Shown: in pieces, positions 14,895-62,492 of the stretch | How the letters are laid out: every line of letters starts with the position of its first letter | Numbering within the stretch: the first letter of the stretch is position 1 | From: a virus | Taxonomy: Duplodnaviria > Heunggongvirae > Uroviricota > Caudoviricetes | Length of the DNA: 64,000 nucleotides | Strand: one strand, 5' to 3' | Virus record (IMG/VR): IMGVR_UViG_3300032007_000008 | Translations under genes and position numbers: made by a program | The notes under the pieces: model-generated | What the model was told of the DNA's origin: nothing | The model's database searches: none | What the model saw: only the letters and a program-made list of their open reading frames with translations

Positions 14895-14915
14895 GAAAAG
14901 CGTCAACTTAAACGG

Positions 14916-14944
14916 TTGACATGATGGCGATGATGTGATATACT
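14916..14944 (+). promoter_or_regulatory. Promoter TTGACA-N17-TATACT with extended TGtGa
   Basis: ttgaca 14916-14921 and tatact 14939-14944. Confidence 0.6.
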
Positions 14945-14967
14945 ATACGGCATCAAGAGAGAAAACC

Positions 14968-15363: not shown

Positions 15364-15366
15364 TAG

Positions 15367-28286: not shown

Positions 28287-28549
28287 CATACCTGAAATGC
28301 GACAGATACGACATAGGCGGAAACCATGTCGAGACTCTATACGTAAAGAAGTTCAGTGACAAGTTTGAAGCCGTCGATTTCGTTGACAAAAACTATCTCG
28401 TTGGTCTTGGAATGCGAAACAGGAAACGGATAGAGCTTTGCAGGAGATGGAAAATGTTTTTCTCGTATCCTGTTGGATATCTCGGTGAACTGGAACCGGC
28501 CGGTGTGATAGGCTTCAGGATTTATTCAAGAGAAAAGGGGTGCAAGTGA
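28283..28549 (+). CDS. Hypothetical protein (88 aa)
   Basis: There is an ATGA overlap. This is the last gene of the plus-strand block. Confidence 0.5.
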   Translation: MTYLKCDRYDIGGNHVETLYVKKFSDKFEAVDFVDKNYLVGLGMRNRKRIELCRRWKMFFSYPVGYLGELEPAGVIGFRIYSREKGCK

Positions 28550-28566
28550 TGCACCCCTCTTCGTTA
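28536..28566 (+). terminator. Hairpin terminator (aggggtgca-agtga-tgcacccct) spanning the stop codon
   Basis: A perfect 9-bp stem, but a weak U-tail. Confidence 0.5.
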
Positions 28567-28578
28567 CCCCAAATTGCG

Positions 28579-29934: not shown

Positions 29935-29982
29935 ATCTCTAATAGTAAAAAATGATGTTAATACTATTTAGTGTATTTCGCC

Positions 29983-30019
29983 AAATAAAGATAAAAGGAC
30001 ACGGCTTATCCGTGTCCTT
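29983..30019 (-). terminator. Rho-independent terminator (minus strand)
   Basis: The hairpin is ggacacgg-ctta-ccgtgtcc with a T-rich tail on the minus strand. Confidence 0.7.
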
Positions 30020-30045
30020 TTCCATGCTCCAGCTTTGTACTGTTC

Positions 30046-31317: not shown

Positions 31318-31330
31318 TTTAGTTTTCCTT

Positions 31331-31504
31331 TTAGTTGTTTGTTTTCTTGTTTTTGTTGTTTTTGGTTGTTTCCTCAGTAGTGGAGCATTGCTTTTTTCTA
31401 CTGAAAAATTCGCGTGTTCCTAGATATACGACCTGAGCCGTGAACCATACGAATCCACATGCAAGGGTGAATACCAGAATACAGAATAGAAGTTTGATTC
31501 CCAT
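31331..31504 (-). CDS. Small membrane protein (57 aa) immediately upstream of the SPFH gene
   Basis: An internal ATG with the RBS aaaggacaaaaaag was chosen. There is a TM helix followed by a basic tail. Confidence 0.45.
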   Translation of the reverse strand: MGIKLLFCILVFTLACGFVWFTAQVVYLGTREFFSRKKQCSTTEETTKNNKNKKTNN

Positions 31505-31569
31505 TTTCTTTTTTGTCCTTTGATGGCTGCAATTATACCACACCAATGGTTTTATCGCAACTGTTTATT

Positions 31570-32748: not shown

Positions 32749-32763
32749 GTTGTTTTCCTCCTA

Positions 32764-33903
32764 TCAGAAGAAAAGGTTTCCGTACATTCCGTTGCTGGAC
32801 CACGTGTGCGGGGTAAGCACGAGCTTCGTAACCTTCGGCTTGCGGCTCTCGTCCTCCGAACGGGCGTCCTCCTTGGTGTAGCGTCCAAACGGCCTCTCAA
32901 GGGAAGTCCAGCGAATTCCGTTCTCGTTGATGATGAGATTTCCGGTGCCGCGGTCTATGCGCCCCTGCGTCATGTCGAAGCACACCTCGATGTTCGGGTG
33001 GTTCGAACCCTCGCAAGTCAGATACTCAACATCATCGTCGTCATCGACACAAATCCACTGCGCATTGGCGGTAAGCTCGATTCCGTCGATTACGGTCTTG
33101 ATGTCATAGCACTTGCGCTCCTCGGAAATATCGATGTTAAGGTCGTTCACGGACTCCTTCAGTGAATAACCATTGTTAAGCTCGTTAACGATTGCCGCGA
33201 GAATGTCGTAGTTGATGTCGTGAAACTTCGCGATGAGAACGAGCTTCTCAATGTCGTCGCCTCCATTCTTGAGATTGTCGATAGCATACTCGCGAACCTC
33301 TTCCTCTGCAAGATAGTTGAACTTGAAGTGGTAGTAGAAGCGGCCTGGGCGGTTGATGAAGAACTCCGAAAGCTTGTGGCAGCTGTTGATTGCCACCATG
33401 AACAGCTTCTTTCCGCTGTCGGTTCCGTCAAAGAGAGAAAGGAACTGAGTCTGACCGCCCTGCTCGTCTCCGTCGTGCATACCGTCCTTGAGAAAATTCT
33501 TCTCAAACTCGTCGAAGAGGACGACGCACTCCTGGTCGATTTTTCCGAGAAAATCGGCAAGACCCGGAATGTCACCCGAAACAACGATGACCGGCAGACC
33601 ACGCTCGATTGCCTTCTCAGCGGTATACCGCATAAAGACGCTCTTTCCCATGCCCTTGTCTCCGCTCAAAAGAATTCCAAGGTTCTTCGAGCGATTATCG
33701 AACGTCTTGAAAATCTTCTCCACACGACGCGGAGTATTTCCGTAAATCTTGAAATTCCCAGTCACAAGCTCCTTTCGCTCAGAGAGCCAGGTGCCGAACA
33801 TCTGGCTGAAGTTGATTGTGTAGACTTTCGGAGGAAGATTGGAAATGATTTTGGTTCCACCGTCCACCACCCTATAGTTAATGCCATTGTTAGAATACTG
33901 CAT
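32764..33903 (-). CDS. Classic AAA ATPase
   Basis: Walker A is GDKGMGKS and Walker B is VVLFDEFE. Sensor-1 is AINS. The second-region-of-homology arginines are in NRPGRF. Confidence 0.75.
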   Translation of the reverse strand: MQYSNNGINYRVVDGGTKIISNLPPKVYTINFSQMFGTWLSERKELVTGNFKIYGNTPRRVEKIFKTFDNRSKNLGILLSGDKGMGKSVFMRYTAEKAIERGLPVIVVSGDIPGLADFLGKIDQECVVLFDEFEKNFLKDGMHDGDEQGGQTQFLSLFDGTDSGKKLFMVAINSCHKLSEFFINRPGRFYYHFKFNYLAEEEVREYAIDNLKNGGDDIEKLVLIAKFHDINYDILAAIVNELNNGYSLKESVNDLNIDISEERKCYDIKTVIDGIELTANAQWICVDDDDDVEYLTCEGSNHPNIEVCFDMTQGRIDRGTGNLIINENGIRWTSLERPFGRYTKEDARSEDESRKPKVTKLVLTPHTWSSNGMYGNLFF

Positions 33904-33932
33904 GATTACTCCTTTGTGATTTGATGCCGCCT

Positions 33933-33961
33933 ATTATAGCACAAAACTTGACAGTTCGCAA
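33933..33961 (-). promoter_or_regulatory. Promoter (minus strand) TTGCGA-N17-TATAATaggcggc driving the AAA gene
   Basis: The reverse complement reads ttgcgaactgtcaagttttgtgctataataggcggc. Confidence 0.55.
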
Positions 33962-33997
33962 CAAAAAATCTCAGCAAGTTTTCAACTGCTGAGATTT
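33962..33997 (-). terminator. Rho-independent terminator (minus strand) downstream of the vWA gene
   Basis: aaatctcagca...tgctgagattt, followed by T6 on the minus strand. Confidence 0.65.
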
Positions 33998-34026
33998 CTG
34001 TGCGGCTCTATGGCCTATGCGTTCTA

Positions 34027-35607
34027 TCAACCGGCAAGTGCCTCCGCCACAGGCTCGTATCGAGCCGAGTTCAGCTTCTTGACGAGAATTGCATGGGGGT
34101 CGAGTTCGTTCGACATAACCATATCCACGTTGTTGGAGCTGAAGCCCGAGATGAGGGCAACGCCGGACTTGGACTGCTGCAACGGCACGGTGCCGGTGCG
34201 GCTGTTAAGGTTCCAGAAGACAAGCTTCGGCATTACATAGCCGTTGGCCTCGAACTTGCGAGAAATGCCGTCAAACAAGGTCTTGCCCTTAGCATCCCAA
34301 TTGCCGCGTCCGTAATATCCGTCGCCAATCGAAGGTGCGTAGCACTGAGCGTCGAACTCGCAATCGCTGAAGATGAGAACCGTCGAAGGAATCTCGTTCT
34401 GCGACATGTGGTTGTCCACGGCAGTCTTGAGGATAAGGTCGAAAACGGCCTCGATATCCGTGTTGTCGTACAGCGACTTCGCAAAGGCAAGCTGCAAGCG
34501 GTCCTTGAGGGACTTGCAGTTCGTCATGTCAACGAACGATGGCTTTGACGAGAACGTGATGTACTTGTCCTTGAACTCGCCGTTGCAGTGCTGCGCAAAG
34601 TAGAAGCCAAGCGCGTGTGCGACTTCCCATGCGCTGACGTTCGTGCCTCCGATTGTGGAGGTCATCGAACCGCTTGAGTCAACGACGCACATTACGCCTC
34701 CGTCGGAGTCCTTCAGCTTGTTCGGCATGGCGTTCCACATCGCCTCGACAGTCGGGTCGTCCGGAATCTGACACTTTCTGTTGCCATAGCCCCAGCTGCT
34801 CTTCGCTTGCGAGTAGAGCTTGTGGAGAATGTCGTGCGGGAATACGGCCTCGGAAGCGTTGATTTTCGCCTCGCCGCTCTTTACGGAATCAAGGTAAGCA
34901 TTGCGACGAGCTTCATCATGCTTCTTGAATGCATCCTTGTAGAGCAGGTTTGCGCGTGACGGAACGTGCTCGTAGTCGATTTCGGAGAAGTTCTTTGCGG
35001 ACATCTTCACTTCAACAACGTCGATGTACTTGCGCAACGCCGAGAGGGTCTTGCGATACTTGCGAGGAGACACCTCAAGGGCTGTAATCCACCTACGGGC
35101 AAGAGACTTCGTGCTCTCGGAAGATGTGTTCTCGGACGGCATCCACTTCGCAAGAAGCGAAACGGACTTGCCCTCGCGCATCTTCTCAACGTCATCGGAG
35201 AGCTGTCCGGCGACAATTTCGATGACATCGTTGCGAAGCTTCGAGTCGATAAGCATGACAAGGTTGTCCCAACGGGTGTATTCCGGTACGAGACGAATGA
35301 CCTTCTTTGCGATATCGTTCTTGTTCGAGACAAGCCAGTCCATGCAGACGCGGAACGTGCGACGCTCTCCACATCCGCCACGAATGTCGCCGATGAAAAA
35401 CAGGAACTTGACGGCAAGGCTCGGGTCTTCGAAGTACACCTTCGCAAACCTTTCAGCGATGGACGAATCCGTCTCGTTTCGGAGAGAGGACAGCATGAAA
35501 TTCATGGTAAGAATCTCCGAACCTGCGGATGCATATCCAATCGCTCCGTTCTCGGTGATGGAGATTTCGTTGTTGAGGGTCTTCTGCATTGCGTTAGCGA
35601 ATGACAT
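34027..35607 (-). CDS. vWA-domain (MIDAS) protein, 526 aa; possibly Ro60/TROVE-like or DUF2828-like
   Basis: The MIDAS motif VMCVVDSSGSM (DxSxS) sits in the C-terminal half. The N-terminal 300 aa or so is unassigned. The Ro60/DUF2828 attribution is inference only. Confidence 0.55.
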   Translation of the reverse strand: MSFANAMQKTLNNEISITENGAIGYASAGSEILTMNFMLSSLRNETDSSIAERFAKVYFEDPSLAVKFLFFIGDIRGGCGERRTFRVCMDWLVSNKNDIAKKVIRLVPEYTRWDNLVMLIDSKLRNDVIEIVAGQLSDDVEKMREGKSVSLLAKWMPSENTSSESTKSLARRWITALEVSPRKYRKTLSALRKYIDVVEVKMSAKNFSEIDYEHVPSRANLLYKDAFKKHDEARRNAYLDSVKSGEAKINASEAVFPHDILHKLYSQAKSSWGYGNRKCQIPDDPTVEAMWNAMPNKLKDSDGGVMCVVDSSGSMTSTIGGTNVSAWEVAHALGFYFAQHCNGEFKDKYITFSSKPSFVDMTNCKSLKDRLQLAFAKSLYDNTDIEAVFDLILKTAVDNHMSQNEIPSTVLIFSDCEFDAQCYAPSIGDGYYGRGNWDAKGKTLFDGISRKFEANGYVMPKLVFWNLNSRTGTVPLQQSKSGVALISGFSSNNVDMVMSNELDPHAILVKKLNSARYEPVAEALAG

Positions 35608-35663
35608 AATTGTTTCCTTTTTTTTGTGTTTGAATTAAGTTTTTTGTTGTTTTTGAAAGAACA

Positions 35664-35906
35664 TCAGCGATGGCGGTACTTCTTGCATCCATCCGTCTTG
35701 CGAGCCTTGTATTCTCCGCTCGCCTTGCATCGGCCTGGATGGTTTGTGAAAGATGCACAAGTGCAGCATTTTCCGTCGTTCAGCTTTGTCCCCTTAGCTT
35801 TCGTGGTCTTTGCCGATTCCTTGGCTTCCTTCGGAATTTTTGGCACCTTAGAGGACTTCTTCGATGTGACGTTTGTCTTTTGTTTAGTCTCAGTCTTCTT
35901 GCTCAT
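35664..35906 (-). CDS. Small, very basic, Cys-containing protein (80 aa)
   Basis: The RBS aaaaggaaaac is present. The composition is rich in Lys, Thr and Ser. Confidence 0.5.
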   Translation of the reverse strand: MSKKTETKQKTNVTSKKSSKVPKIPKEAKESAKTTKAKGTKLNDGKCCTCASFTNHPGRCKASGEYKARKTDGCKKYRHR

Positions 35907-35944
35907 GTTTTCCTTTTGTTTTCTGTTTCACTCAAACGCCGCCT

Positions 35945-35973
35945 ATTATACCACAGAAACATAAACGGCGCAA
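35945..35973 (-). promoter_or_regulatory. Promoter (minus strand) TTGCGC-N17-TATAATaggcggcgtttgag (conserved leader)
   Basis: The reverse complement reads gtttctgtggtataataggcggcgtttgag. Confidence 0.6.
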
Positions 35974-35991
35974 CACTTTTTCGTAAAAATT

Positions 35992-37200
35992 TTAGAAGAA
36001 GAAACCAGCATATTTCATCATAAGGTCTTCATGCCTCTTTAACGAGGCATCCCAGTCGGGATTCGAATAGTCTTCCTTTTCTACCTCCCACGTCTTCGTG
36101 TTAACGAACACGTTTGGAGACCAATCCCCTCCGTTCTTCTTGTATTGCCCATGTTTGCAATATCCAAGCGGATTCATGACACATAAGCAGTTTCCAATCT
36201 TGAAGCTGCTTCTGTGGTGAACATGGCCGCAGACCCAGCATTTTATCTGTGGATGAGATATTATGAAATCGTCAAGCTCCGACACGTAAGAGGCGTTCAT
36301 GGAGTCGTTAACGTATTCATCGCTTATGCACTTGGAGCTTGGGCAGTGATGCGTCATCACAACGATGTCTTTCGACGGATTCTCTTCAACGATTCTCTTT
36401 ATCTCGGAAAACGTCCGTTCGAAAAACCTCAGGTAATTTTCAGGTGTAAGGTAGAACTTGTCCGAATCATCCCATGGTTCGCGCTTGTAGGTGCCTTCTC
36501 TGGTTTTTCCGAAGTTGAAGTCGTTCATGCCACCGCCAGACATCTTTGGCGTTGCCATACGCATGTTTAACGCCTTGAAAGAATCGCCCTTGGACAGAGG
36601 ATAATCTATCGGAAACTCATAGTTCGTATAAAGAGTTGAACATACGAACAGTATGCCATCAACCTCTTTCGACATGACACCAACCGATTGGTCGAGAAAC
36701 GATATGTCGCCGCTTTCAGGAAACTCCTTGTGGTAATCCTCCTTAAGCTCCTCTATGGTTTTACCGTCGCGATTGTATACTATGTGGTTTCCGGCTATGA
36801 AAATTCCCTTGGATATATTGTTCCTAATCCAATCTGACGAAGATGAACGTGTTATTGTTATGGTATCTCCGTTTTTTGCCATGTCTAGGTTCCTTATGCG
36901 GATGCCGAGGTTCAGAAGAGATACCCTCTTTCCATCCGAATCCACCCAATGGCCAACATTCTTGCCATCTTCCGTCTTGTAAGTGATTTTCATAGAACCG
37001 GTCTCGAAATGCTCCATGATTTCCCCGTCAGACTCTATTCTCGGCTGAACAAGAACGTTTGACGATTCCACGGACACGAGTTTTCTCTCTCCGCTTATAT
37101 CGCCCGCAATCAAAGTGAACACTCCGTCCTTTTTCAGCGACAGTGGGTAGTCGTAGTTGTAGTCTATGTGAAGGTCGCTTATTACTCTGAACTTTTCCAT
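35992..37200 (-). CDS. Calcineurin-like metallophosphoesterase
   Basis: The motifs are ISDLHID (DxH), AGDIS (GD), IAGNHIVY (GNH) and VCGHVHH (GHxH). Confidence 0.75.
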   Translation of the reverse strand: MEKFRVISDLHIDYNYDYPLSLKKDGVFTLIAGDISGERKLVSVESSNVLVQPRIESDGEIMEHFETGSMKITYKTEDGKNVGHWVDSDGKRVSLLNLGIRIRNLDMAKNGDTITITRSSSSDWIRNNISKGIFIAGNHIVYNRDGKTIEELKEDYHKEFPESGDISFLDQSVGVMSKEVDGILFVCSTLYTNYEFPIDYPLSKGDSFKALNMRMATPKMSGGGMNDFNFGKTREGTYKREPWDDSDKFYLTPENYLRFFERTFSEIKRIVEENPSKDIVVMTHHCPSSKCISDEYVNDSMNASYVSELDDFIISHPQIKCWVCGHVHHRSSFKIGNCLCVMNPLGYCKHGQYKKNGGDWSPNVFVNTKTWEVEKEDYSNPDWDASLKRHEDLMMKYAGFFF

Positions 37201-40513: not shown

Positions 40514-41056
40514 TCAAAACAGCTTCATCGGCTTGGTGTCGTTCATCGACTCATCAGCTCGATAATACTCAAATTTGATAAAATCGTATCCTACGATTGA
40601 CAGAAACAGACTCGTGGGAAACTTCCTGCAATATCTGTTATAGTCTCTGACATATTCATTAAACGCCTTCTTGTGCTGAGCAAGATGGTTCTCTACAATC
40701 GAAATCTCTTCCATCAGCATCTTGTAATTAGCCTGAGAACGCAGTTCTGGATACCTCTCCTCGACACGGCTAAATGCGGCAAGGCACTCCTTGACCTCCT
40801 TGCCGTTCATGTTCTTTCCACGTGCGGCAATTGTGTCTGTCAGTGTGCGGTATTCATGGGCATCATAATTCTTTACGCATTCTGCAAGTTCGGTAAGCTT
40901 GTTGAATCGATTCGCAAGCTGAACGTCAATCCCAGATTGAGCCGTTTTAACAGACTCTTCGAGACTTATAGCTCCATTTTGCGAAGACATGACGCAACAT
41001 AGGCCGATGAGAAAAATTCCGGCAATTGCCGAAAGAACGATTACTGTTAATTTCAT
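40514..41056 (-). CDS. LemA-family membrane protein
   Basis: An N-terminal TM helix is followed by matches to the LemA consensus: VQLANRFN, RYPELRSQANYKMLMEEISIVENHLAQHKKAFNEYVRDYNRYCRKFPTSL. Confidence 0.6.
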   Translation of the reverse strand: MKLTVIVLSAIAGIFLIGLCCVMSSQNGAISLEESVKTAQSGIDVQLANRFNKLTELAECVKNYDAHEYRTLTDTIAARGKNMNGKEVKECLAAFSRVEERYPELRSQANYKMLMEEISIVENHLAQHKKAFNEYVRDYNRYCRKFPTSLFLSIVGYDFIKFEYYRADESMNDTKPMKLF

Positions 41057-41148: not shown

Positions 41149-42147
41149 TTAGGTATGGTAAATGTTTATTGTCTTGAACGGAAATTCATCGAAATACCAT
41201 TTGTTGAACTTCTGCTTGAAATCATCTTCGGTATCGCATCTCCATCCACGAAGTCTGGTTCTGCAACTCCTCTGAGAGTTGAACCAGTCGCTGTGCGCTT
41301 TATAGCAGTCTATCCTAGTAAGTCCATTTGCCCTGAAATACGACCAATACTGCTCTATATGAGCTAGAAGGCTGTTCAATGCCTCCATGTCGGTCTTCAC
41401 AATAAACTTGTGATTTGTATAGACTAGAACCGCAGCAACCGCATTTGACATTCGGTTGTTGAGTATCTCTCTATTATGAGCAGAAATCTGTGAAGCGGCC
41501 TTCTCTTCCTGGCTTACATATTTCTGAATCTCCCAGCCGTCCTTCTTGAGACGCTCAGCCTCTTTCAAGAAAAACACAGGACCGTGGGCATCATATGCTC
41601 GACGGCTCACTTTTCTTCCGTTGTATATGAAATGCTCAGGATGGAAAACGTAATCCGCTATGTGAATCATCTCATGGAGAAGTGTCGTCTTCTTGATGTT
41701 TTCTGGAGATTCGTTATAGTTTGACAGCGTAATTTTAAAGTTAAAAAGAGGCCCCTGACACCATCCATTTCTTCTGCTGAAGCTATATGACGCCCGTCCC
41801 CACGTCCTCGACGAATTATTTGTCTCGAATGCTATGTTTTTTGGAAGCTGTGAATCCCAGTACTTTGCGTTGAAAATGTCATACCACTTCCGCATCCATG
41901 CTTCGTCCACAATCATCTTTTCGTCAGACTGCGAGTTCGAATCTGTCTGCTGTACACCGCTGGAAGGCTCGGTCTCTGAAGATGGAGACGAAGGAGCTGC
42001 CGTCTGTTGCGGCGATGGCTGCTCTTCCGTATTAGGCTCCGTCTCTGGTGTTGATGGTACGTTCGCAGTGGAAGATTGCCGCTCTTTGTACATACTGAGT
42101 ATTTCATCAGGTGACATCACTTCCGTTATAGGCGAAATTCTGCTCAT
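41149..42147 (-). CDS. SprT-like HExxH zinc metalloprotease with an N-terminal Pro/Ser/Thr/Glu-rich low-complexity region
   Basis: The TTLLHEMIHIADY motif is present. The N-terminal region reads PSTPETEPNTEEQPSPQQTAAPSSPSSETEPSS. Confidence 0.6.
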   Translation of the reverse strand: MSRISPITEVMSPDEILSMYKERQSSTANVPSTPETEPNTEEQPSPQQTAAPSSPSSETEPSSGVQQTDSNSQSDEKMIVDEAWMRKWYDIFNAKYWDSQLPKNIAFETNNSSRTWGRASYSFSRRNGWCQGPLFNFKITLSNYNESPENIKKTTLLHEMIHIADYVFHPEHFIYNGRKVSRRAYDAHGPVFFLKEAERLKKDGWEIQKYVSQEEKAASQISAHNREILNNRMSNAVAAVLVYTNHKFIVKTDMEALNSLLAHIEQYWSYFRANGLTRIDCYKAHSDWFNSQRSCRTRLRGWRCDTEDDFKQKFNKWYFDEFPFKTINIYHT

Positions 42148-42196: not shown

Positions 42197-42622
42197 TCAC
42201 CAATCTGCTATTTTTCCAACAGATTCTTTCAGAAATTCTAAAAATCCATTTTTAGGAACAAGTTCCTCGCGTCTTTTCCAATTGCTGCACGGTTCATTTT
42301 TCTCGTCAATAAGCCTAATGAAATTCGGATTTACCGTGCATGACAACGTGTATTTGTGAGTTGTCATTATGCAATAATTTTTGCAATATTCGCAATCCGA
42401 GCATTTATAGAACCTTTTTCGTATAAATGCCGATATTTTTAGCATAACAATCAGGAAAAACGTTGCAGGCCATATTACAGACAACCCTCCGACAAAAATA
42501 GATTCTCCCGGTTCACCTACGCCTCCAGCCAAATCGTCAAGCTTCCACAGAAGAAACATGGCGCACAGTATGTAACCGCCAAGCCAAATGAAGAAATACG
42601 TAAGCATCGATAAATCCGTCAA
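42197..42622 (-). CDS. Membrane protein (two TM helices) with a Cys-rich C-terminus
   Basis: The N-terminus has hydrophobic segments. The Cys cluster is CSDCEYCKNYC. Confidence 0.5.
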   Translation of the reverse strand: MTDLSMLTYFFIWLGGYILCAMFLLWKLDDLAGGVGEPGESIFVGGLSVIWPATFFLIVMLKISAFIRKRFYKCSDCEYCKNYCIMTTHKYTLSCTVNPNFIRLIDEKNEPCSNWKRREELVPKNGFLEFLKESVGKIADW

Positions 42623-43167
42623 TGGCCGCCGGTGCTTCCGAAACCACCGGCTCCTCGGTCGGTATCGTCAAGCTTATCAACCTCTACTATCGAAGATTGA
42701 ATGACAGGCACGACCTCACACTGTGCGACACGTTCTCCGTCCGTAACTAGCACCGAATAGGTAGGCGACGTGTTGTATAGACACACCATCACCTCTCCAC
42801 GATAGCCGCTGTCGATTATTCCTGTCGAATTTGACAGTATAAGCCCCTTCTTGATTCCTGTAGAAGACCTCACATGAACTTTGATTCCATAGCCTTCATC
42901 AGGCTGAAACGTAAGACCCGTATGAAGAAGAACCGATTCATGTGGGCCTATTCTGACGGCAAATTTTCCATATTGCTCCTTGGAGGATTCAAGCTCCGTC
43001 GCGTTAAACTCTCCACCTTCGACAAGCATTGGTGCGTTCACTCCGTCGTCAATAAGAACCCCAAGGTCGAAACAGATGTCGCCATCATGCTTGTATCCAT
43101 GTATTTCCGCACGGTTGCAAACCTTCTTGACGCGAACCGTTGGAATCGCTTTTTCGTCACTGCCCAT
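42619..43167 (-). CDS. dut: dUTP pyrophosphatase (dUTPase)
   Basis: Motif III is IDSGYRGEV and motif V is RGAGGFGSTG. An internal ATG with the RBS ggaggagg was chosen. Confidence 0.8.
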   Translation of the reverse strand: MGSDEKAIPTVRVKKVCNRAEIHGYKHDGDICFDLGVLIDDGVNAPMLVEGGEFNATELESSKEQYGKFAVRIGPHESVLLHTGLTFQPDEGYGIKVHVRSSTGIKKGLILSNSTGIIDSGYRGEVMVCLYNTSPTYSVLVTDGERVAQCEVVPVIQSSIVEVDKLDDTDRGAGGFGSTGGH

Positions 43168-44261: not shown

Positions 44262-44504
44262 ATAAAGGTTGCCCCTTACGGGGGCAGGTCGGGTTTGAAG
44301 TTTTCCTTCTTCGAAACACGGAAACGGCCTTCTAAATCTTGACTGTTAATTCTTCATTCTTGATTTTTTACTGTCTAAGATATGAATCTTGAAGCCGATG
44401 GCTTTTGTCGATGTCAGTATCTGTTTCAATTCACTGATGTTCAGTGACGTTGTGGCAGTATTCAAGACGAATACTAACTTTGGCCGAACCGCGTCTCAGA
44501 CAAA

Positions 44505-45023
44505 TCAGTCCGGTATTTCAACGAACGTCTTCGCGTTATATTCGTCGATTTCGTCCTGCAAGGTGTTAACCCTGTCGCTGTAAGCCTTTTGAGTTTCAAG
44601 GAAAAACTCCGTATCAAGCGCATAGTGGTTTATCAGCATGTTGCGCTCGCTACCGTAAGGCTCTACAGTGTTACGGCCTGTATGGAACGAACCAATCTCC
44701 GAAAGGGCCGACTTCGCTTCCGTCAGTGAGACGAGAAGCTCGGCTGCACCCGCGTTGGCCTTTGTGATGGCCGTCTTGATTGCGACCAGACGCTCCTTCA
44801 TGGACTCGTATACACGGAAAAGGCTGAGCGGGTCTGTGTTTCCTCTCTCCTTTGCGGCTATTTCAGCCACGTAGTCTTTCGAAATCTCGCTTGTGTTCGA
44901 GCCTTCCGAAACCGTAATCACCTTTCTTACAAGATTGTGGTCGTTGAATATGCTCCGTATTCGGTTGATTTCACCGATAAGGCGGTTCTTTTCCTTGAGA
45001 GCACGTGCCAATGTTACTCGCAT
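44505..45023 (-). CDS. Hypothetical protein (172 aa), distal gene of the NAD-salvage operon
   Basis: The ORF is 17 nt downstream of pncA. Confidence 0.5.
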   Translation of the reverse strand: MRVTLARALKEKNRLIGEINRIRSIFNDHNLVRKVITVSEGSNTSEISKDYVAEIAAKERGNTDPLSLFRVYESMKERLVAIKTAITKANAGAAELLVSLTEAKSALSEIGSFHTGRNTVEPYGSERNMLINHYALDTEFFLETQKAYSDRVNTLQDEIDEYNAKTFVEIPD

Positions 45024-45039
45024 GTTTGCTTCCTTTCTG

Positions 45040-45627
45040 TTATTGCTGAATGCTTACGATGTCTATGTGGCAGTTTTTGGCCACGGTTAATGCGGCAGAA
45101 TGGGACTCGTCGTTGATGTCGCCGCAAAGATTTTCGACGATTGTAATCTTGACGTTAGGATAGAACGCACGGAGGATTAGCGCGTTGCTGATTACGCATA
45201 TCGAAGTGCAGAACCCGCAGATTCTGATTTCCTCAAGCTTCTCCTTGCAGCCGCCAAGGTTCGTGTCCGCGTTTCCGAAATCGTGACCGAAACGACCGAG
45301 CATGTCAAGAGAGCCGAATGTGCGCTTCTGTATGATATGCCCCTGAGGTACGATTACGTCTCCATTCTCGTCCTTTACAAGCCCATCTACGATACGCCAT
45401 CCCTCACTTCCCTCGATGCAGTGCTTCGTCGGCAGCTTCTGTCCCTCAAGAGAACTGCCGTAGGTCGCATCCTTATGCGTATCCATAGTCGCATATATCG
45501 AGAATCCCTTCGAACGGCACTCCTTTGCGTACTCGATAATGCGGGGTGCTGTCTTTCTCGCCCATTCGGAACCTAAAGTTCCCGAAACGAAATCGTTTTG
45601 AACGTCAACCAATAGTAATGCTTTCAT
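45040..45627 (-). CDS. pncA: Nicotinamidase / isochorismatase-family cysteine hydrolase (PncA-like)
   Basis: The N-terminal motif is LLLVDVQNDF. A catalytic-Cys region, ICGFCTSICV, is present. Confidence 0.7.
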   Translation of the reverse strand: MKALLLVDVQNDFVSGTLGSEWARKTAPRIIEYAKECRSKGFSIYATMDTHKDATYGSSLEGQKLPTKHCIEGSEGWRIVDGLVKDENGDVIVPQGHIIQKRTFGSLDMLGRFGHDFGNADTNLGGCKEKLEEIRICGFCTSICVISNALILRAFYPNVKITIVENLCGDINDESHSAALTVAKNCHIDIVSIQQ

Positions 45628-45652
45628 TTGTTTTTTGTTCCTTTATAAGATG

Positions 45653-46480
45653 CTATTGCTGAATCTCGCCAACTTCCCGCACTAGACTGCGCTTCAGCAC
45701 AAAATTTTCAAAATTGTGGAATTTTGGTCCTGGTATGACAACCATTCTCGTCTTGAACTTGTTCTTCTCAAATAGCGAATCGACACGGCACTTGAACTCG
45801 TCGTCTCCCTCGTTTAGGCGAATGTACCTGTCAAGTCTCTTGTATGTGAATCCAAGCCTCTCCTCGTCGCTCTGCGGCTGTAATCCGTCAACAGGCGTCT
45901 TGTGGACAAGATGCCATGGAAGACCGAGCCAATCCCCAAGTTGCAGTATCTCCGTTACTGTAAGACCCTGAAGCGGAGCATAAGAGCCTGCATTGTCACC
46001 AAAAAGAGTTGCATATCCACAAACGTCTTCAGACAGGTTGCAGGTATTCAATACGATTCCGTCAATCGTCTGCGCAATCGCATAGAGAGTCGTCATTCTG
46101 AGACGAGCTGGCATGTTGATTACGGCATCGGTAGAAATCTTAACACCGTGTATACCGTCAATCCACTCTTTTAGAGAATCGAATGCTTCTCCAATGTCAA
46201 CAGTATAACTGGAAATCTCAAGGGCATTCACGACATCGAACGAATCGTCAATGTCCTTCTGACCGTTGCATGGCATAAGAACACCAATCACACGGTCTTT
46301 GCCGAAAATCCTAGATGCAAGAGCAGCCACAACGGTGGAGTCCTTGCCGCCGCTGATTCCAACGACGAACTTCTTGCTTCCGAAGTTCAGTTCGTCGCAC
46401 CACTTAGTCCAGTCTCGCCTAATCTCCTCAAACGCGACTTCCGCGTCAAACTTGTAGTCGTTTTCCATAACGCCAATCAT
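45653..46480 (-). CDS. nadE: NH3-dependent NAD+ synthetase (NadE)
   Basis: The PP-loop VVGISGGKDST (SGGxDS) is present. The length is about 275 aa. Confidence 0.75.
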   Translation of the reverse strand: MIGVMENDYKFDAEVAFEEIRRDWTKWCDELNFGSKKFVVGISGGKDSTVVAALASRIFGKDRVIGVLMPCNGQKDIDDSFDVVNALEISSYTVDIGEAFDSLKEWIDGIHGVKISTDAVINMPARLRMTTLYAIAQTIDGIVLNTCNLSEDVCGYATLFGDNAGSYAPLQGLTVTEILQLGDWLGLPWHLVHKTPVDGLQPQSDEERLGFTYKRLDRYIRLNEGDDEFKCRVDSLFEKNKFKTRMVVIPGPKFHNFENFVLKRSLVREVGEIQQ

Positions 46481-46492
46481 TATATCACATGT

Positions 46493-47080
46493 TCAGTTTT
46501 TGCGCAACAACAAAGATTCGCCATTTTTGCAAAAAATCTGCAAAAGTCCGCTTGCCGACAAACGGAGATAGGCACCAGCCATCAAAGACGAACCCTTTCC
46601 GTTCATAAAGTCTTGAAACATCTCCATTTTGTCCTTCCAATATACCTCAAGCTTTTCATGCAAATCTGGATGTGGAATGCCTTCTTTGTAGTTTTCATCC
46701 CCCAAAAGTCTAAGATTCACATAGAAATAGTGCATGTGGTTCGTCATGAACGCCGGATTTGCCGCGAAACAACCAAGATATTTCAAATGCTTCGCATCAA
46801 TCTGGTATCCAGTCTCCTCATAAAGCTCCCTGACTGCCGCATCTACTGGAGATTCGCCGTCCTCAACCATTCCGCAGGGAAATTCCTCGAATTTCTCCAT
46901 AATTCCATATCGCAACTGCTTCACGGCAAGATAGTTTGAATTTTGCTCGACTATGACGCTAACCCAATCCGAAGACGATACCACCGTCGGATTGAATCCT
47001 ATGCTGAAATCGTAGTCTATCCTCGTACCTACGTCAAATATTGGCGTTTTAAGAAGAGATGTTATAGTTTCATGTTTCAT
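46493..47080 (-). CDS. Nudix hydrolase (ADP-ribose pyrophosphatase-like)
   Basis: The Nudix box is GMVEDGESPVDAAVRELYEETGY. An internal ATG immediately after the upstream stop was chosen. Confidence 0.65.
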   Translation of the reverse strand: MKHETITSLLKTPIFDVGTRIDYDFSIGFNPTVVSSSDWVSVIVEQNSNYLAVKQLRYGIMEKFEEFPCGMVEDGESPVDAAVRELYEETGYQIDAKHLKYLGCFAANPAFMTNHMHYFYVNLRLLGDENYKEGIPHPDLHEKLEVYWKDKMEMFQDFMNGKGSSLMAGAYLRLSASGLLQIFCKNGESLLLRKN

Positions 47081-47081
47081 A

Positions 47082-47759
47082 TCAGTATTTCTCAAGTATA
47101 TAATCAAGGAGCATTTCGAAGCCGTCATCGTGCTCGGCAAAAACTTCACGAACCCTAGATGCAGAAACGTCGGAAAACGCATCTCCCAATGTTATTGTTC
47201 TGTCTATCGGTATGTCCGACGGAACGTTTGTGCCGCTTCGTCCTCCAACAACAATTATCTTCGTGTTGTTTATGATGTCATCATAATGGTACCAACTTCT
47301 AAGCTTCTCAGCACTGTCGCTTCCTATCGCAGTATACACTTCGGTTGTTTTTGGATAGCTTACCTTTATTCCGAGAAGAGTATCTATGAATCTCCTGCCT
47401 GAGATAAGCTCGTTCGCAACGCCAGTGCTGTTTTGCGACTCAAGTAGCATTTCGCGAAATCTGAGTTCCCTGTCATCTATCAGAATTCTTGTTGCACAAC
47501 CATCCTTTCCGTATGGTGTGTTGCTGCAATAAGGACTGAATCCGCTTACGGAATAACCATGCTTGTACAGAGCCGCCCGTATGCATTCCGTCTTCTGAAA
47601 ATCGCTTAGCCATGGCTTCTTTCCGTTTCTATGGTAATTCACAATCGTAGGCACCACATGGATGAACGAGAATTCGTCTAGCTCATAAAGCTTATCTATT
47701 ATTTGCTGGTGGCTTATCGTCCACGGGTCGAACGTGCCTCCAAATACGCAGATTTTCAT
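47082..47759 (-). CDS. nadD: Nicotinate/nicotinamide mononucleotide adenylyltransferase (NadD/NMNAT-like cytidylyltransferase fold)
   Basis: The N-terminus is FGGTFDPWTISH ((T/H)xGH-type). A C-terminal SxxxxR-type motif, SDVSASRVRE, is present. Confidence 0.65.
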   Translation of the reverse strand: MKICVFGGTFDPWTISHQQIIDKLYELDEFSFIHVVPTIVNYHRNGKKPWLSDFQKTECIRAALYKHGYSVSGFSPYCSNTPYGKDGCATRILIDDRELRFREMLLESQNSTGVANELISGRRFIDTLLGIKVSYPKTTEVYTAIGSDSAEKLRSWYHYDDIINNTKIIVVGGRSGTNVPSDIPIDRTITLGDAFSDVSASRVREVFAEHDDGFEMLLDYILEKY

Positions 47760-47806
47760 TTGCAGTGCCTACAGTTAGGGATATGACCGACCTGAATTCC
47801 ACGCCA

Positions 47807-49099
47807 TTACCGTCCATGCATAAGCCGCCAGTCTATGCAACGCTGAAGATACTTGACATATTCTTCGTCTTTGCACATGCCCTTTCCTGGCGTGTTCGAC
47901 AACTTTGCAACAGGCGAACCGTTGCATTCGGTCATCTTAAATACAATGTTCAGTGAATCTTCAAACGGACAGCTGAGATACGTTCCGATTCCGAATGCGA
48001 CCTTTGCGCGTCCCTCGAAGTGTTTCTGAATCTTCGAAGCCTTTTCGAAATTAAGGCTGTCGCTAAACAGTAGAGTCTTCTCAGACGGGTCGAATCCGAG
48101 ATTCTTGTAGTGCGAAATCATCATCTCGCCCCATTCGTAGGGGTCTCCGCTGTCATGGCGAACGCCACTGAACAACTTTGCGTATGTCTTCGTGAAATCC
48201 TTGAGGAACACGGACGTTCCAAGGGTATCGGTAAGAGCGATACCAAGGTCAGTCTCGTATTCCTTTACCCAATACTGCAACGCGAACTTGTTCGAATATG
48301 CAGGATTAAGCTCGAAATCCCCCTGAAACGCCATGAAATATTCATGTGCCTGCGTTCCAACGGCCTTGACGTTGTATTTCTTGGCGAGGTACACGTTCGA
48401 CGTTCCGACAAATCCGCCAAGGTTCCTGCTCAATATGTATCCGATTAGCCAATCCTGCATTTTCGCGGAATAGCGACGACGCATCCCAAACTCGGAGAAT
48501 GTGAATGGAGAATAGTGCGTCTTCGCGTACTCATCGAGCTTGTCGATGAAAACAGGCGTACCGTTGTAAGCAGATGTAATCCTATCGACTTCATCTTGGC
48601 TTTCGAAAAGACTGAACTTCTCTATTGTCTTAGCCTTGAATTCATCGTCACGCGCAGAGATTCCGTACTTAAATGCGAAATAGACCTCGTTCACGATTGC
48701 CAAAATCGCAATCTCGTACATGGATGTGTTCAGCCAAGTTCCACGAGCCTCAATAGCGAGTCCGCAGTCGTTATATGCCACCATTCCTGGTTCATTAACG
48801 TGGATTTCGTCAATGAACGGGTGCCACAAACGGAGAAAATCTATATAATCCGAGTGAATCCACGGAAGTTTCTCCTTAAGCCACTTAAGCTCATGCTCGG
48901 TAAACTTCAACGTGCAGTAGTGGGCTATCTGAGCCTTTATCTCATCAACCATTTCCTGCGTGAACTTGACCTTCGCGTTTCGGCACTTGAAAGACCATGT
49001 AGTTGTATATCTGCTGAAGTTGTGGAATACCACCTGTCCCATGGAGAACTTGTAGGCATCCGTCTCAAGAAGAGAAACTATGATTGGGCTTAATTTCAT
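47807..49099 (-). CDS. pncB: Nicotinate phosphoribosyltransferase (PncB, type II PRTase)
   Basis: The N-terminal segment LLETDAYKFSMGQVVFHNF ... SFKCRN closely matches E. coli PncB (LLDTDAYKLHMQQAVFHHY ... EFRCRG). The start was set at the ATG after the promoter. Confidence 0.75.
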   Translation of the reverse strand: MKLSPIIVSLLETDAYKFSMGQVVFHNFSRYTTTWSFKCRNAKVKFTQEMVDEIKAQIAHYCTLKFTEHELKWLKEKLPWIHSDYIDFLRLWHPFIDEIHVNEPGMVAYNDCGLAIEARGTWLNTSMYEIAILAIVNEVYFAFKYGISARDDEFKAKTIEKFSLFESQDEVDRITSAYNGTPVFIDKLDEYAKTHYSPFTFSEFGMRRRYSAKMQDWLIGYILSRNLGGFVGTSNVYLAKKYNVKAVGTQAHEYFMAFQGDFELNPAYSNKFALQYWVKEYETDLGIALTDTLGTSVFLKDFTKTYAKLFSGVRHDSGDPYEWGEMMISHYKNLGFDPSEKTLLFSDSLNFEKASKIQKHFEGRAKVAFGIGTYLSCPFEDSLNIVFKMTECNGSPVAKLSNTPGKGMCKDEEYVKYLQRCIDWRLMHGR

Positions 49100-49109
49100 A
49101 ACGCACAAC

Positions 49110-49138
49110 ATTATACCACAGCGTACTAGTTTTGGGAA
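49110..49138 (-). promoter_or_regulatory. Promoter (minus strand) TTCCCA-N17-TATAAT with extended TGtGg. The ATG is 12 nt downstream, so the leader is short or absent.
   Basis: The reverse complement reads ttcccaaaactagtacgctgtggtataatgttgtgcgttATG. Confidence 0.55.
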
Positions 49139-60884: not shown

Positions 60885-62492
60885 TTATGGTATTGGAACA
60901 GATGGTGTAAATACAATATCTGATAAATACAATCCGCGATGATAACTGGTATTAGAAGTTCTTGTATATACTCTAATATCAAAAACAGTGGACGACGGCA
61001 ATTCTTTTGCAATACTCTGCCATGTTGTAAGATTACCGGAACCAGAATTATTATACGTCACAAATTTAGTATCCTTACCATCAATCGAATACCAAGCGTC
61101 CAGCTGTATGTAATAATAAGCAGTATATGTCCCATCTCCTCTGTATGAAAAAGAAATATTTCCATCGACAGATGCAACGAAAGATAGCCTTGGCGTAGTA
61201 CCATAACTTGATGCCGCACGAGCCAACACGTTCACTCCATCCTTTCCATACGTTGAATAATTTGCAGTAGAAATGCCAGTTCCGCCGCCATTAATATACC
61301 ACATTGCAATATTTCCTGAAAATTTCAGAATGTCTGCCACTGATATAATATGCCCAACTTCAAATAGCACGTCTCCAATCGTTATATCATCTGCGATAAC
61401 GTCACCAGTATCAAGCTGTGATGCCTGTTTTGCAATCTTGGTAGATGTAATTTGAAAGCTGTCATACTGTTCATATTGACTGAACAAATCTACCATTTCT
61501 TCAGTTATTATCTGTAACGCTTCGCAAACTAAAACACTAGCGTCTGCTTCAGAATCATAACAATATATATTGGAAAGAGCCAAACTGCCTATATGCTCAT
61601 CAGTCAACTCATAATAGTCATCAACTGTTGATTTATCGAATACCAAGCATTCAGCATCTATCGAAGTGTTTTTTAGATAAAGGGCATTCACTGATGCATT
61701 CAAAAATTCAATTGGCGAAGTGCTGGTATTATAGGGTATCCAATGCGCGTACACAATAAAATCTCTTATTGGTACTCGGCTCGACATATTAAGTCCGATT
61801 TTGAAATCGACTATAGTTTCGCCCGTCTCGTCATCTGTATGTTCTGAATACCAGCCATCAAAAACGTAGCCGCTTCGAACAGGTATTGGAAGTCCAAAGT
61901 CGCTGTATGGTTCATATGGAGCATATTCTCTACTTGCCGTATCACATGTGCCGCCCATTGGATTAAACGTCACCATAGTTCCGCTTATCATGAAATGGGC
62001 ATATAAATCCGTTACGGTGTCGTCAATTTCGGATGTTTCGTATATGCGTATATTATGTTCAACATGCTCTTCGTTTGCATACCATCCTGCAAAGAAATTA
62101 CTCCCTTTGGTCGGAGCAGGAAGAGAGTTCCATTTCATGTCGTTATTCATGTCAGCTTCCGCGTAATGGTCGCTTGACGAAATAACACCTCCATCGAGAT
62201 TAAGTTTTACCCAATGTGCATACAATATTTTCGCGTTTATATCCGCTGCATCCGAAACAAGAACTTTTCTGCCGTGTCCATGCTCCTTTTCCGTAAACCA
62301 GCCTGTAAACTTATATCCATCTCTTGTCGGAATTGGAAGAGAATCGTATGCGCTTTCTGGAAAATAATAATCCTTTTCTATAGAATCGCATATTCCGCCA
62401 TTCGCATCAAACACAACAAAAAAATGCATGTTCGAAACTTTTTTTATGACATTTAACGTAGAATTATGTTTATTTGAAATTATTCTTGACAT
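60885..62492 (-). CDS. Tail fibre / receptor-binding-like protein with three Listeria-Bacteroides (InlB B-type) repeats
   Basis: Three repeat units of the pattern FDANGG...GYKFTGWFTE...LYAHW are present (VVFDANGG..., LNLDGG...FFAGWY...LYAHF, VTFNPMGG...FDGWYSE...VYAHW). Confidence 0.6.
   Translation of the reverse strand: MSRIISNKHNSTLNVIKKVSNMHFFVVFDANGGICDSIEKDYYFPESAYDSLPIPTRDGYKFTGWFTEKEHGHGRKVLVSDAADINAKILYAHWVKLNLDGGVISSSDHYAEADMNNDMKWNSLPAPTKGSNFFAGWYANEEHVEHNIRIYETSEIDDTVTDLYAHFMISGTMVTFNPMGGTCDTASREYAPYEPYSDFGLPIPVRSGYVFDGWYSEHTDDETGETIVDFKIGLNMSSRVPIRDFIVYAHWIPYNTSTSPIEFLNASVNALYLKNTSIDAECLVFDKSTVDDYYELTDEHIGSLALSNIYCYDSEADASVLVCEALQIITEEMVDLFSQYEQYDSFQITSTKIAKQASQLDTGDVIADDITIGDVLFEVGHIISVADILKFSGNIAMWYINGGGTGISTANYSTYGKDGVNVLARAASSYGTTPRLSFVASVDGNISFSYRGDGTYTAYYYIQLDAWYSIDGKDTKFVTYNNSGSGNLTTWQSIAKELPSSTVFDIRVYTRTSNTSYHRGLYLSDIVFTPSVPIP

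Follow-up and report, generated by a model that had tools for sequence, protein, structure and literature searches.

Does a phage carry a complete route from nicotinamide to NAD+, and if so, for what purpose? This question is raised by six closely spaced open reading frames (ORFs) at positions 44505-49138 of the 64,000-nucleotide stretch of DNA analyzed here (the window), arranged on the minus strand in the order pncB, a nadD-like gene, a Nudix gene, nadE, pncA and a gene for a 172-aa protein (Table 1). All six ORFs described in an earlier note on this DNA are present, their refined coordinates agree with those called on L008, a contig of identical sequence, and the intergenic gaps in this order are 47, 1, 24, 25 and 16 nt. 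Very probably, the cluster is an NAD+ salvage module of the Preiss-Handler type, carried by a jumbo phage whose host is probably one of the Bacillota, and would maintain NAD+ in infection.

Table 1. Features of the NAD+ salvage cluster and its borders, in window coordinates
Feature	Position	Strand	Evidence
P1, sigma-70-type promoter-like site TTCCCA-N17-TG-g-TATAAT	49110..49138	-	before pncB; conserved in L003 (closest relative)
pncB, type I nicotinate phosphoribosyltransferase, 430 aa	47807..49099	-	NCBIfam, Pfam and PDB matches
Divergent NadD-type (NaMN-preferring type) adenylyltransferase (predicted), 225 aa	47082..47759	-	motifs GGTFDPWTISH, VSASRVRE
Nudix hydrolase, ADP-ribose-pyrophosphatase-like, 195 aa	46493..47080	-	canonical box GMVEDGESPVDAAVRELYEETGY; NUDIX 56 bits
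P2, internal promoter-like site TTGCGC-N17-TG-a-TATAAT	46479..46507	-	directly before nadE
nadE, single-domain NH3-dependent-type NAD+ synthetase, 271 aa	45653..46468	-	TIGR00552, PP-loop SGGKDS
pncA, nicotinamidase, 195 aa	45040..45627	-	Isochorismatase 83 bits (Pfam)
172-aa helical protein, DIP1984-like fold, function unassigned	44505..45023	-	AF2 model, fold match
Terminator-like GC-rich hairpin TGCCCC-cgtaa-GGGGCA, weak U-tract	44270..44286	-	in 243-nt gap ending cluster

The source is a large uncultured gut phage (jumbo phage) with a contig of up to 292 kb. A nadD-like copy identical to that of the window was found on contigs of up to 291,652 bp, and at least seven more large phage-like contigs have the cassette (L003, L004, L009, L010, L095, L096 and a GCA_016648615.1 contig). 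Relatives lie on phage-like contigs of 240-290 kb. In L010 the cassette adjoins phiKZ_IP-like genes, and in L095 a phage-type topoisomerase II. RNA-repair genes of a conflict type lie elsewhere in the window, which also encodes an NAD(P)H-dependent RmlD scoring above its equivalog cut-off, and in relatives the conflict-type NADAR is found next to pncB. That the locus is instead bacterial chromosomal DNA, i.e., a host pncA-pncB-nadE operon, is barely credible, even though the window itself holds no capsid, portal or terminase genes and such clusters do occur in Lachnospiraceae genomes. The chromosomal operon of Lachnospiraceae encodes the same pathway and the closest cellular homologs (PncB 53%-57%, NadE 45%-52% and PncA 33%-43% identical), with the pncA homolog directly upstream of pncB, but its gene order differs and neither a phage-type NadD nor a Nudix gene is adjacent. 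Moreover, the 80 nearest cellular PncB sequences, all genome-derived and with pncA-pncB(-nadE) synteny lacking the phage-type NadD, form an exclusive Lachnospiraceae/Clostridia clade apart from the group to which the window belongs. The surroundings are also phage-like, consisting of ORFans and phage-family genes in long same-strand blocks, with no tRNA, rRNA or housekeeping genes in the window. The DNA is thus phage-like and not host chromosome, the latter being an outcome that the earlier note had named as fatal to its proposal, as were inactivating substitutions; the catalytic motifs of the enzymes are intact.

Type I nicotinate phosphoribosyltransferases convert nicotinate (NA) and PRPP to NaMN in an ATP-coupled reaction. 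Assignment of PncB to this family is supported by Pfam (NAPRTase, 236 bits; NAPRTase_N, 108 bits), by NCBIfam scores above the cut-offs (equivalog TIGR01514, 406.6 against 269.55; NF003704, 465 against 379), and by matches to PDB entries 1yir and 3os4 (E 1e-81), while the histidine of GTQAHE is invariant across 20 relatives. Its description as very close to Escherichia coli PncB was overstated, as the two are 37% identical and the nearest cellular relatives are those of Lachnospiraceae. The host is probably a member of the Bacillota, and perhaps of the Lachnospiraceae.

Nicotinamidases hydrolyze nicotinamide to NA and NH3. The earlier assignment of the pncA product to this family, with a catalytic cysteine, is borne out by its Pfam match, and its best PDB match is Pyrococcus horikoshii PncA (1im5). 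Asp8, Lys101, the cysteine of CTSICV and the metal ligands (D49, H51 and the histidine of KHC) are invariant in phage and Lachnospiraceae homologs.

The adenylyltransferase is divergent. It scores 37 bits against CTP_transf_like (Pfam) and at most 55 bits against the NCBIfam NadD models, under their cut-offs. Nonetheless, sequence profiles and structure models predict that it is of the NadD type and not of the NadM type found in NatV: the best 17 matches in a family-profile search of the PDB were NadD without exception, neither NadM nor NadR being among them, and the top 50 matches of a fold search were likewise NadD throughout, although the query model had a pLDDT of only 67. Where H/T-x-G-H is the canonical motif, the window protein reads T-I-S-H, which counts against the assignment. 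The NadD-like family comprises 64 representatives at E<1e-30, and among 10 long members scanned, seven were fused to Nudix and three to NadE. In L004, L010 and GCA_016648615.1, NadD and Nudix domains reside in one protein of 401-430 aa.

This architecture matches that of NatV (NadM-Nudix), and the earlier note had feared that the two genes would prove to be a NatV-type NMNAT-Nudix pair, making the locus a variant of NARP2. An adenylyltransferase fused to Nudix does exist in relatives, but we consider a NARP2 variant very unlikely. Besides the absence of NadM and NadR among the profile and fold matches, a tblastn search with the adenylyltransferase against 50,697 phage records returned no match at E<0.01, NadV is absent (the phosphoribosyltransferase exceeds the NaPRTase equivalog cut-off), and NARP2 has no place for NadE or PncA. 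Hence, because the fusion partner is from a different adenylyltransferase family and PncB, NadE and PncA are present alongside it, the cassette falls outside NARP2.

NAD+ synthetases amidate NaAD to NAD+, using ATP and NH3. The nadE product was correctly recognized as the NH3-dependent form with an SGGKDS PP-loop, scoring 163 against TIGR00552 (cut-off 63.65). Its PDB matches are led by P. horikoshii NADS (2e18, 113 bits), followed by Francisella tularensis NadE (3fiu, 108 bits) and the Bacillus subtilis 1nsy group (70 bits). Because the Francisella enzyme, an NMN synthetase, ranks second among the solved relatives, the order of reactions could differ, with NadE converting NaMN to NMN and the adenylyltransferase then converting NMN to NAD+. 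Francisella pairs its NMN synthetase with an NMNAT-Nudix fusion (PMC3376133), its route likewise combines a phosphoribosyltransferase, a short NadE and a Nudix-linked adenylyltransferase, and a NadD-NadE fusion would fit either order. We regard this order as unlikely, given that the top NadE match is the P. horikoshii NADS and that the Francisella enzyme goes with NadM (PMC3376133), whereas the adenylyltransferase of the cassette is NadD-type by sequence profile and fold. The latter argues for the classical order, NaMN to NaAD to NAD+.

The Nudix gene begins 1 nt past the nadD stop codon (TGAtATG), and its product, which carries the canonical Nudix box previously reported, corresponds in alignments to the C-terminal domain of the NadD-Nudix fusions in L004 and L010. 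The best PDB matches are ADPR pyrophosphatases, namely Thermus thermophilus Ndx4 (1v8i, 51 bits) and NUDT5, and Ndx4 has its downstream proline at the aligned position. It is improbable that the enzyme acts on another target, such as NADH, NAD-capped RNA or an immune signal derived from ADPR. Reading Nudix specificity from sequence is difficult, and the score against TIGR00052 (YffH/AdpP) is under the cut-off of this ADPRase family (43.5 against 79.55). However, the closest solved relatives act on ADPR or ADP-sugars, the score against NudC is only 17 bits, and the recurrent fusion to an NAD+ adenylyltransferase parallels the known NadM-ADPRase fusion. As the NadD, Nudix and PncA proteins score under NCBIfam equivalog cut-offs, we infer their specificities, as we do the Nudix substrate, the timing of expression and the purpose of the cassette.

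With five enzymes assigned and their motifs intact, all steps from nicotinamide to NAD+ claimed in the earlier note are represented, together with an ADPR-pyrophosphatase-like Nudix protein. In the proposed route, PncA would deamidate nicotinamide to nicotinate, PncB would combine nicotinate with PRPP to form NaMN, the NadD-type enzyme would adenylate NaMN to NaAD, and NadE would amidate NaAD with ammonia to yield NAD+. ADPR would most likely be cleaved by the Nudix enzyme to AMP and ribose-5-phosphate, which host enzymes could remake into ATP and PRPP. In this way, nicotinamide and ADPR, the two products of an NADase, would both return to NAD+.

Expression was previously attributed to a single promoter. 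The site before pncB is real and conserved in L003, but this account is too simple, as nadE is immediately preceded by another such site, and TGnTATAAT occurs at the equivalent position in L003 and L004. A generic scan found no excess of promoter-like sites in the region (10 versus 8.1 ± 2.5); in the window as a whole, the extended -10 motif TGnTATAAT occurs far more often than in shuffles (19 sites, the one before pncB included, versus 2.6), and the ATG-anchored pattern occurs at 10 sites versus 1.07 expected. The pncB and nadE start codons each lie 10 nt past the -10 hexamer, so that pncB mRNA would have almost no leader. The genes would be driven by two extended -10 promoters of the host sigma-70 type with near-leaderless starts, suggesting transcription by the host polymerase. 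The sixth ORF is likewise real, but does not belong to the conserved module: it follows pncA only in the close relatives L003 and L008, and homologs occur on other contigs of huge phages, where NAD genes are lacking. Its product had no match in Pfam, PHROG or NCBIfam, and the AF2 model (pLDDT 92) best matched 3KDQ (TM 0.60-0.67). It is probably a co-transcribed neighbor outside the pathway.

The cassette is distinct from all three of NARP1, NARP2 and NARP3. NARP1 (Adps + Namat) would similarly reuse both NADase products, but ligates ADPR-PP directly to nicotinamide, whereas here ADPR would be broken down to AMP and ribose-5-phosphate and re-enter only once the host has made PRPP and ATP from these; the cluster has neither a PRPS-like nor a NAMPT-like gene. 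NARP2, represented by KVP40 NadV and NatV, also starts from nicotinamide, occurs in large phages and couples the final adenylyltransferase to a Nudix ADPRase-like domain, as in the fusions of the cassette's relatives. It takes two amidated steps through NMN (NAMPT and NadM-type NMNAT), unlike the four steps via nicotinate, NaMN and NaAD predicted here with PncA, NaPRTase, NadD-type enzyme and NadE. The ATP cost of the latter would be higher than that of NARP1 or NARP2. NARP3 (PnuC + NadR), the third experimentally shown pathway (Sci Adv 2026, PMC13464706), is likewise a bacterial salvage route copied by phages, for which NAD+ restoration is proposed or shown, but it imports nicotinamide riboside and uses NadR (PMC13464706); the cassette has no PnuC or NadR, and its precursor would be an intracellular NADase product.

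The view that the operon is a third, distinct solution holds as to its difference from NARP1 and NARP2, but not as to novelty. Complete Preiss-Handler pncB-nadD-nadE clusters (e.g., Kuafu_71) were already described in gut "NAD-jumbo phages" and explicitly proposed to counter Sir2-type NAD+ depletion (Li et al. 2024, Microbiome 12:268, PMC11662467), so that our interpretation is new only in part. Those phages share with ours a gut-type metagenomic jumbo phage setting, clustered genes and a complete route. The main text of that paper contains no occurrence of Nudix, no NadD-Nudix or NadD-NadE fusions and no promoter structure, and has pncA only twice, not listed in a cluster (PMC11662467). The Kuafu clade was assigned Bacteroidota hosts there, whereas in the window phage the promoters and Shine-Dalgarno sites are of the Firmicutes style and PncB resembles that of Lachnospiraceae.

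What the module is for may be read in two ways. Nothing in our data directly links the cassette to a defense system. The same biochemistry could serve metabolic augmentation, an auxiliary module providing NAD+ for phage NAD-dependent enzymes and a host with weak salvage, and we give this reading serious weight while leaning slightly away from it. Li et al. emphasize phage enzymes that consume NAD and the complementing of host pathways (PMC11662467), RmlD is one NAD(P)H-dependent enzyme of the window, and the cluster lacks a defense-specific partner gene. On the other hand, a pncA entry and an ADPRase-like Nudix fit the two NADase products, the RNA-repair and NADAR genes are of the conflict type, and NARP1, NARP2 and NARP3 make NAD+ rebuilding a proven anti-defense strategy. 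An anti-defense role is hence plausible, and the two roles are compatible: the cassette may keep NAD+ available in infection, including under NAD+-depleting abortive-infection systems.

All six minus-strand open reading frames described in an earlier note on this DNA are present, and the same calls, with refined starts, were obtained on an identical public contig (L008). The genes pncB, nadD, and nadE are clustered on one strand within 3.5 kb, and successive genes from pncB to the sixth are separated by 47, 1, 24, 25, and 16 nt, respectively.

Features of the NAD+ cassette and of other loci in the window
Feature	Coordinates	Strand	Remarks
pncB	47807-49099	-	430 aa
nadD-like gene	47082-47759	-	225 aa
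Nudix gene	46493-47080	-	195 aa
nadE	45653-46468	-	271 aa
pncA	45040-45627	-	195 aa
Sixth gene	44505-45023	-	172 aa
GC-rich hairpin	44286-44270		in 243-nt gap after sixth gene
Promoter-like site P1	49138-49110		before pncB
Promoter-like site P2	46507-46479		before nadE
TGnTATAAT, examples	160-168, 771-779, 2085-2093, 3383-3391, 4754-4762	+
TGnTATAAT, examples	35953-35945, 33941-33933, 31540-31532	-
RmlD (dTDP-4-dehydrorhamnose reductase)	12125-13045	+	equivalog 250.7 vs 224, above cut-off
MFS transporter	15367-16557	+	lactate/oxalate-formate (monocarboxylate) type; SfMCT model 160 bits, below cut-off
HAD_SAK_2	27708-28286	+
ATP-dependent RNA ligase	31570-32748	-
AAA ATPase phrog_2376	32764-33903	-
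TROVE/DUF2828 "RNA-binding protein"	34027-35607	-
Metallophosphoesterase	35992-37200	-
LemA-family protein	40514-41056	-	just downstream of NAD cluster
SprT-like protein	41149-42147	-	just downstream of NAD cluster
dUTPase	42619-43167	-	just downstream of NAD cluster
Listeria-Bacteroides repeat (Flg_new) proteins, two, large	60885-62492, 62509-63672	-

PncB scored above threshold against the NCBI curated equivalog for nicotinate phosphoribosyltransferase (TIGR01514; 406.6 versus a cut-off of 269.55) and aligned over its full length with type I NaPRTases of solved structure, with the histidine of its GTQAHE (phospho-histidine) motif invariant in 20 relatives. Its identity to E. coli PncB is only 37%, so the previous description of the two as very close was wrong. 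NadE likewise exceeded its threshold (TIGR00552; 163 versus 63.65) and is a single-domain protein with an SGGKDS PP-loop and without a glutaminase domain. PncA has an isochorismatase fold, with the P. horikoshii nicotinamidase (1im5) as its best solved relative. It scored below the threshold of the curated PncA equivalog (NF008623; 27 bits versus 174), and its assignment is based on the active site, together with pncA-pncB synteny in Lachnospiraceae; the Asp-Lys-Cys triad and Asp/His/His metal ligands are invariant in an alignment of 1im5 with 12 phage and Lachnospiraceae homologs. The Nudix protein has a canonical Nudix box. Among solved structures it is closest to ADP-ribose or ADP-sugar pyrophosphatases, but its score is below the cut-off of the ADPRase family TIGR00052 (43.5 versus 79.55).

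The adenylyltransferase is divergent, forming a clade of its own, and is clearly NadD-type. The best NadD models gave 55 bits (cut-offs, 112-315), which is below the curated NadD equivalog threshold. When a profile of its family was compared with the PDB, the best 17 matches were all NadD; NadM and NadR were absent from the profile matches, the weaker of which were mostly PPAT with a few NadD. The 50 best fold matches of its AF2 model were also all NadD, a result of little weight at a pLDDT of only 67. The motifs GGTFDPWTISH and VSASRVRE are kept in the family, with T-x-[GSAT]-H, and contain both (H/T)xxH and SxxxxR. Moreover, a check for inactivating substitutions found catalytic motifs intact in PncB, the NadD-type enzyme, the Nudix protein, NadE, and PncA.

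From these assignments, PncA would convert nicotinamide (Nam) to nicotinate (NA), PncB would join NA and PRPP to form NaMN, the NadD-type enzyme would convert NaMN to NaAD, and NadE would use NH3 to produce NAD+. The predicted preference of the NadD-type enzyme for NaMN over NMN has indirect support from the co-occurrence and fusion with NadE. Because NadE resembles 3fiu, we also considered the order used by Francisella, in which NaMN would be converted to NMN and then to NAD+. This is a minority alternative, as the Francisella adaptation goes with NadM, not NadD (PMC3376133), and Nam to NA to NaMN to NaAD to NAD+ is the most likely order. The Nudix enzyme would split ADP-ribose (ADPR) into AMP and R5P, for re-entry via host PRPP/ATP synthesis. 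Overall, this biochemical reading of the cassette is well supported, and we consider it highly probable.

Gene content and relatives strongly indicate that the DNA belongs to a phage, short of proof because no capsid, terminase, or other virion gene is found within the window. The window is made up of long blocks of genes on the same strand, either ORFans or members of phage families, the latter including an RNA ligase, a TROVE/DUF2828 protein (a type known from 710 phage records), the phrog_2376 ATPase, dCMP deaminase, dUTPase, DUF932, HAD_SAK_2, and an endolysin-like peptidase. The window contains no tRNA (tRNA scan), Rfam family (at gathering score), or housekeeping gene. An identical NadD (P0121; 100%) is encoded on public contigs of up to 291,652 bp, placing the genome above 200 kb. 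The locus had no Megablast match among 50,697 phage records, the NadD-like protein had no tblastn hit in phage records at E <0.01, and a PncB search of IMG/VR viral contigs recovered no relative.

Comparison with related contigs shows a wide distribution of the module among uncultured large phages. Thousands of database sequences are related to PncB; the 120 best of these derive from metagenomes and share 58-88% identity with it. Every relative context inspected was phage-like and module-bearing. The closest relative (L003; PncB 88% identical) has the gene order of the window, and four further contigs (L004, L005, L006, and L010) carry pncB, a fused NadD-Nudix gene, nadE, and pncA. In L010 (246 kb), the module adjoins phiKZ_IP-like genes. 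The module is also carried by a 162-kb contig of GCA_016648615.1, and its genes are dispersed in L009, where NadE is 613 aa. A 239-kb contig (L095) has split NadD and Nudix genes with a phage-type topoisomerase II nearby, and a resolvase plus IS605 OrfB/TnpB element is inserted between its Nudix gene and nadE (13676-15704). Within the stretch inspected, contig L096 has only pncB, a neighboring NADAR gene, and a gene for a 363-aa Nudix protein. NADAR genes (132 bits) adjoin pncB in L096 (423-959) and lie ~4 kb upstream of pncB on the GCA_016648615.1 contig, neighbors in two lineages that link the cassette to ADP-ribose conflict genes. In a human fecal phage fragment (L001, MT835946.1; 20-920), the 3' end of pncB (67% identical) is directly followed by a nadE-like gene, a third way in which the module is arranged.

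In an exhaustive profile search, the phage NadD clade had 64 representatives at E <1e-30, and half of them are 370-530 aa long. Ten long members comprised seven NadD-Nudix and three NadD-NadE fusions, and the two fusion types together provide Rosetta-stone evidence for joint action of the three activities.

The nearest cellular PncB sequences are from Lachnospiraceae and other Clostridia (53-57% identity), whose loci comprise pncA-pncB, often with nadE next, without a phage-type NadD or Nudix gene. In a neighbor-joining PncB tree, 80 genome-derived sequences formed an exclusive clade apart from the metagenomic/phage group; with E. coli as the only outgroup, the tree backs the separation of the bacterial clade and not a direction of transfer. 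Judging from the PncB affinity, the bacterial loci without NadD or Nudix, and the separate bacterial clade, the cassette appears to be a Clostridia salvage operon that was captured long ago and gained a phage-specific NadD(-Nudix).

The promoter-like sequence TTCCCA-N17-TGgTATAAT reported previously is present before pncB (P1) and conserved in the nearest relative. It had been taken for a single promoter of the operon; instead there are two sites, the second (P2) preceding nadE and conserved in both L003 and the more distant L004. A generic promoter scan gave no excess of promoter-like sites in the cluster region. The window contains 19 copies of the extended -10 motif TGnTATAAT versus 2.6 in shuffles, and nearly all of them are preceded by TTGAC(T), TTGCG, or TTCCCA at a distance of 17 nt and followed by a conserved GGCGGCGTT-like box. 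This strong sigma-70-type promoter family suggests Firmicutes-style expression driven by host RNAP and a Firmicutes-type host. An AAAGGAG ribosome-binding site usually follows the motif, and such sites occur at genes of the window other than those of the NAD sites. At both NAD sites, the ATG lies 10 nt past the -10 hexamer, a spacing that points to nearly leaderless mRNAs. Rfam gave only a chance-level match in the locus, and hence no NAD riboswitch there.

The 172-aa protein encoded after pncA has a confident helical model (pLDDT 92), whose sole meaningful fold match is 3KDQ, an uncharacterized C. diphtheriae protein. The gene occupies this position in close relatives only. We rejected it as a pathway member since more distant cassettes lack it and its homologs are found in other huge-phage contigs that carry no NAD genes, which makes it a neighbor and not a conserved part of the pathway. 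A role of the MFS transporter as a NiaP-type niacin importer found no support, as the protein matches lactate/oxalate-formate families below their cut-offs, although nicotinate is itself a monocarboxylate. On the GCA_016648615.1 contig, an MFS_1 gene and a solute-binding protein gene lie ~1 kb downstream of pncA.

Elsewhere in the window, RmlD is a phage-encoded NAD(P)H-dependent sugar-nucleotide enzyme, and the five genes from HAD_SAK_2 to the metallophosphoesterase (27708-37200) form an RNA-repair-like set that may act against tRNA- or RNA-cleaving defenses. The dUTPase gene and its 282-aa neighbor are syntenic in L003. Sequences weakly matching the Flg_new proteins occur in Listeria phage fragments and in Prevotella Lak megaphages.

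Among the strategies of abortive infection in bacteria, NAD+ depletion is one of the most common. Three NAD+-rebuilding phage routes have been demonstrated experimentally, and the cassette differs from each. Its six genes lack the Adps (PRPS-like) and Namat (NAMPT-like) domains of NARP1. Whereas NARP2 and NatV combine a NadV-type NAMPT with a NadM-type NMNAT(-Nudix), the PRTase here is a NaPRTase equivalog and the adenylyltransferase has no match to NadM or in phage records, which argues against a NatV-type fusion already covered by NARP2, a possibility raised in the earlier note. NARP3 consists of PnuC and NadR (PMC13464706); both are absent from the cluster, and the sole transporter among the scanned window ORFs is the MFS protein. 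PncA, PncB, and NadE are unmentioned in the papers on NARP1/NARP2 (bioRxiv 10.1101/2024.02.11.579819) and NARP3 (PMC13464706), and Iyer et al. 2022 described NadV, NadM-Nudix, and NadR only. The recoded ("code 15") gut phage Phass-1 (L002, OQ749652.1; 8001-12439) carries pncA, a PRPS/PRTase-like gene, a 532-aa NAMPT/NAPRTase-family gene, a 139-aa ORF, and an unannotated NadE (NAD_synthase, 153 bits). Here, nicotinamidase and NAD synthetase flank a NARP1-looking pair, and the locus may be a deamidated NARP1 variant (perhaps nicotinate + ADPR-PP to NaAD to NAD+).

The cassette had been proposed as a third, distinct solution; systems like it, and the hypothesis itself, have already been published by Li et al. 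2024 (PMC11662467), who reported complete salvage or Preiss-Handler routes in 174 of 668 gut jumbo phages. As described there, the NAD-jumbo phage cluster shares with the cassette a >200-kb genome and clustered pncB/nadD/nadE. Relative to the clusters in the main text of that paper, what is added here is pncA and the Nudix gene as members, the NadD-type nature of the adenylyltransferase, the fusions, an affinity to Lachnospiraceae, and the arrangement of the promoters. Among the papers searched, none challenged a defense system with a Preiss-Handler cassette.

Anti-defense is a plausible candidate purpose, unproven and compatible with plain metabolic support. We tentatively put forward, with less than even confidence, a fuller account in which the cassette would be a fourth, deamidated, NAD+ reconstitution pathway that beats NADase immunity, recovering Nam via PncA-PncB-NadD-NadE and ADPR via a Nudix ADPRase that is physically coupled, or fused, to a NadD clade specific to phages. 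In this account, host-type promoters would express the cassette as nearly leaderless mRNAs, with NadD-Nudix and NadD-NadE as new bifunctional enzymes. With five genes in 4.1 kb and intact motifs, the cassette is a compact test object for asking whether a deamidated route serves as counter-defense, whether the linked Nudix enzyme recycles ADPR, and what role the phage-specific fusions play. If the account is true, both NADase cleavage products, Nam and ADPR, would be recycled by a phage cassette.
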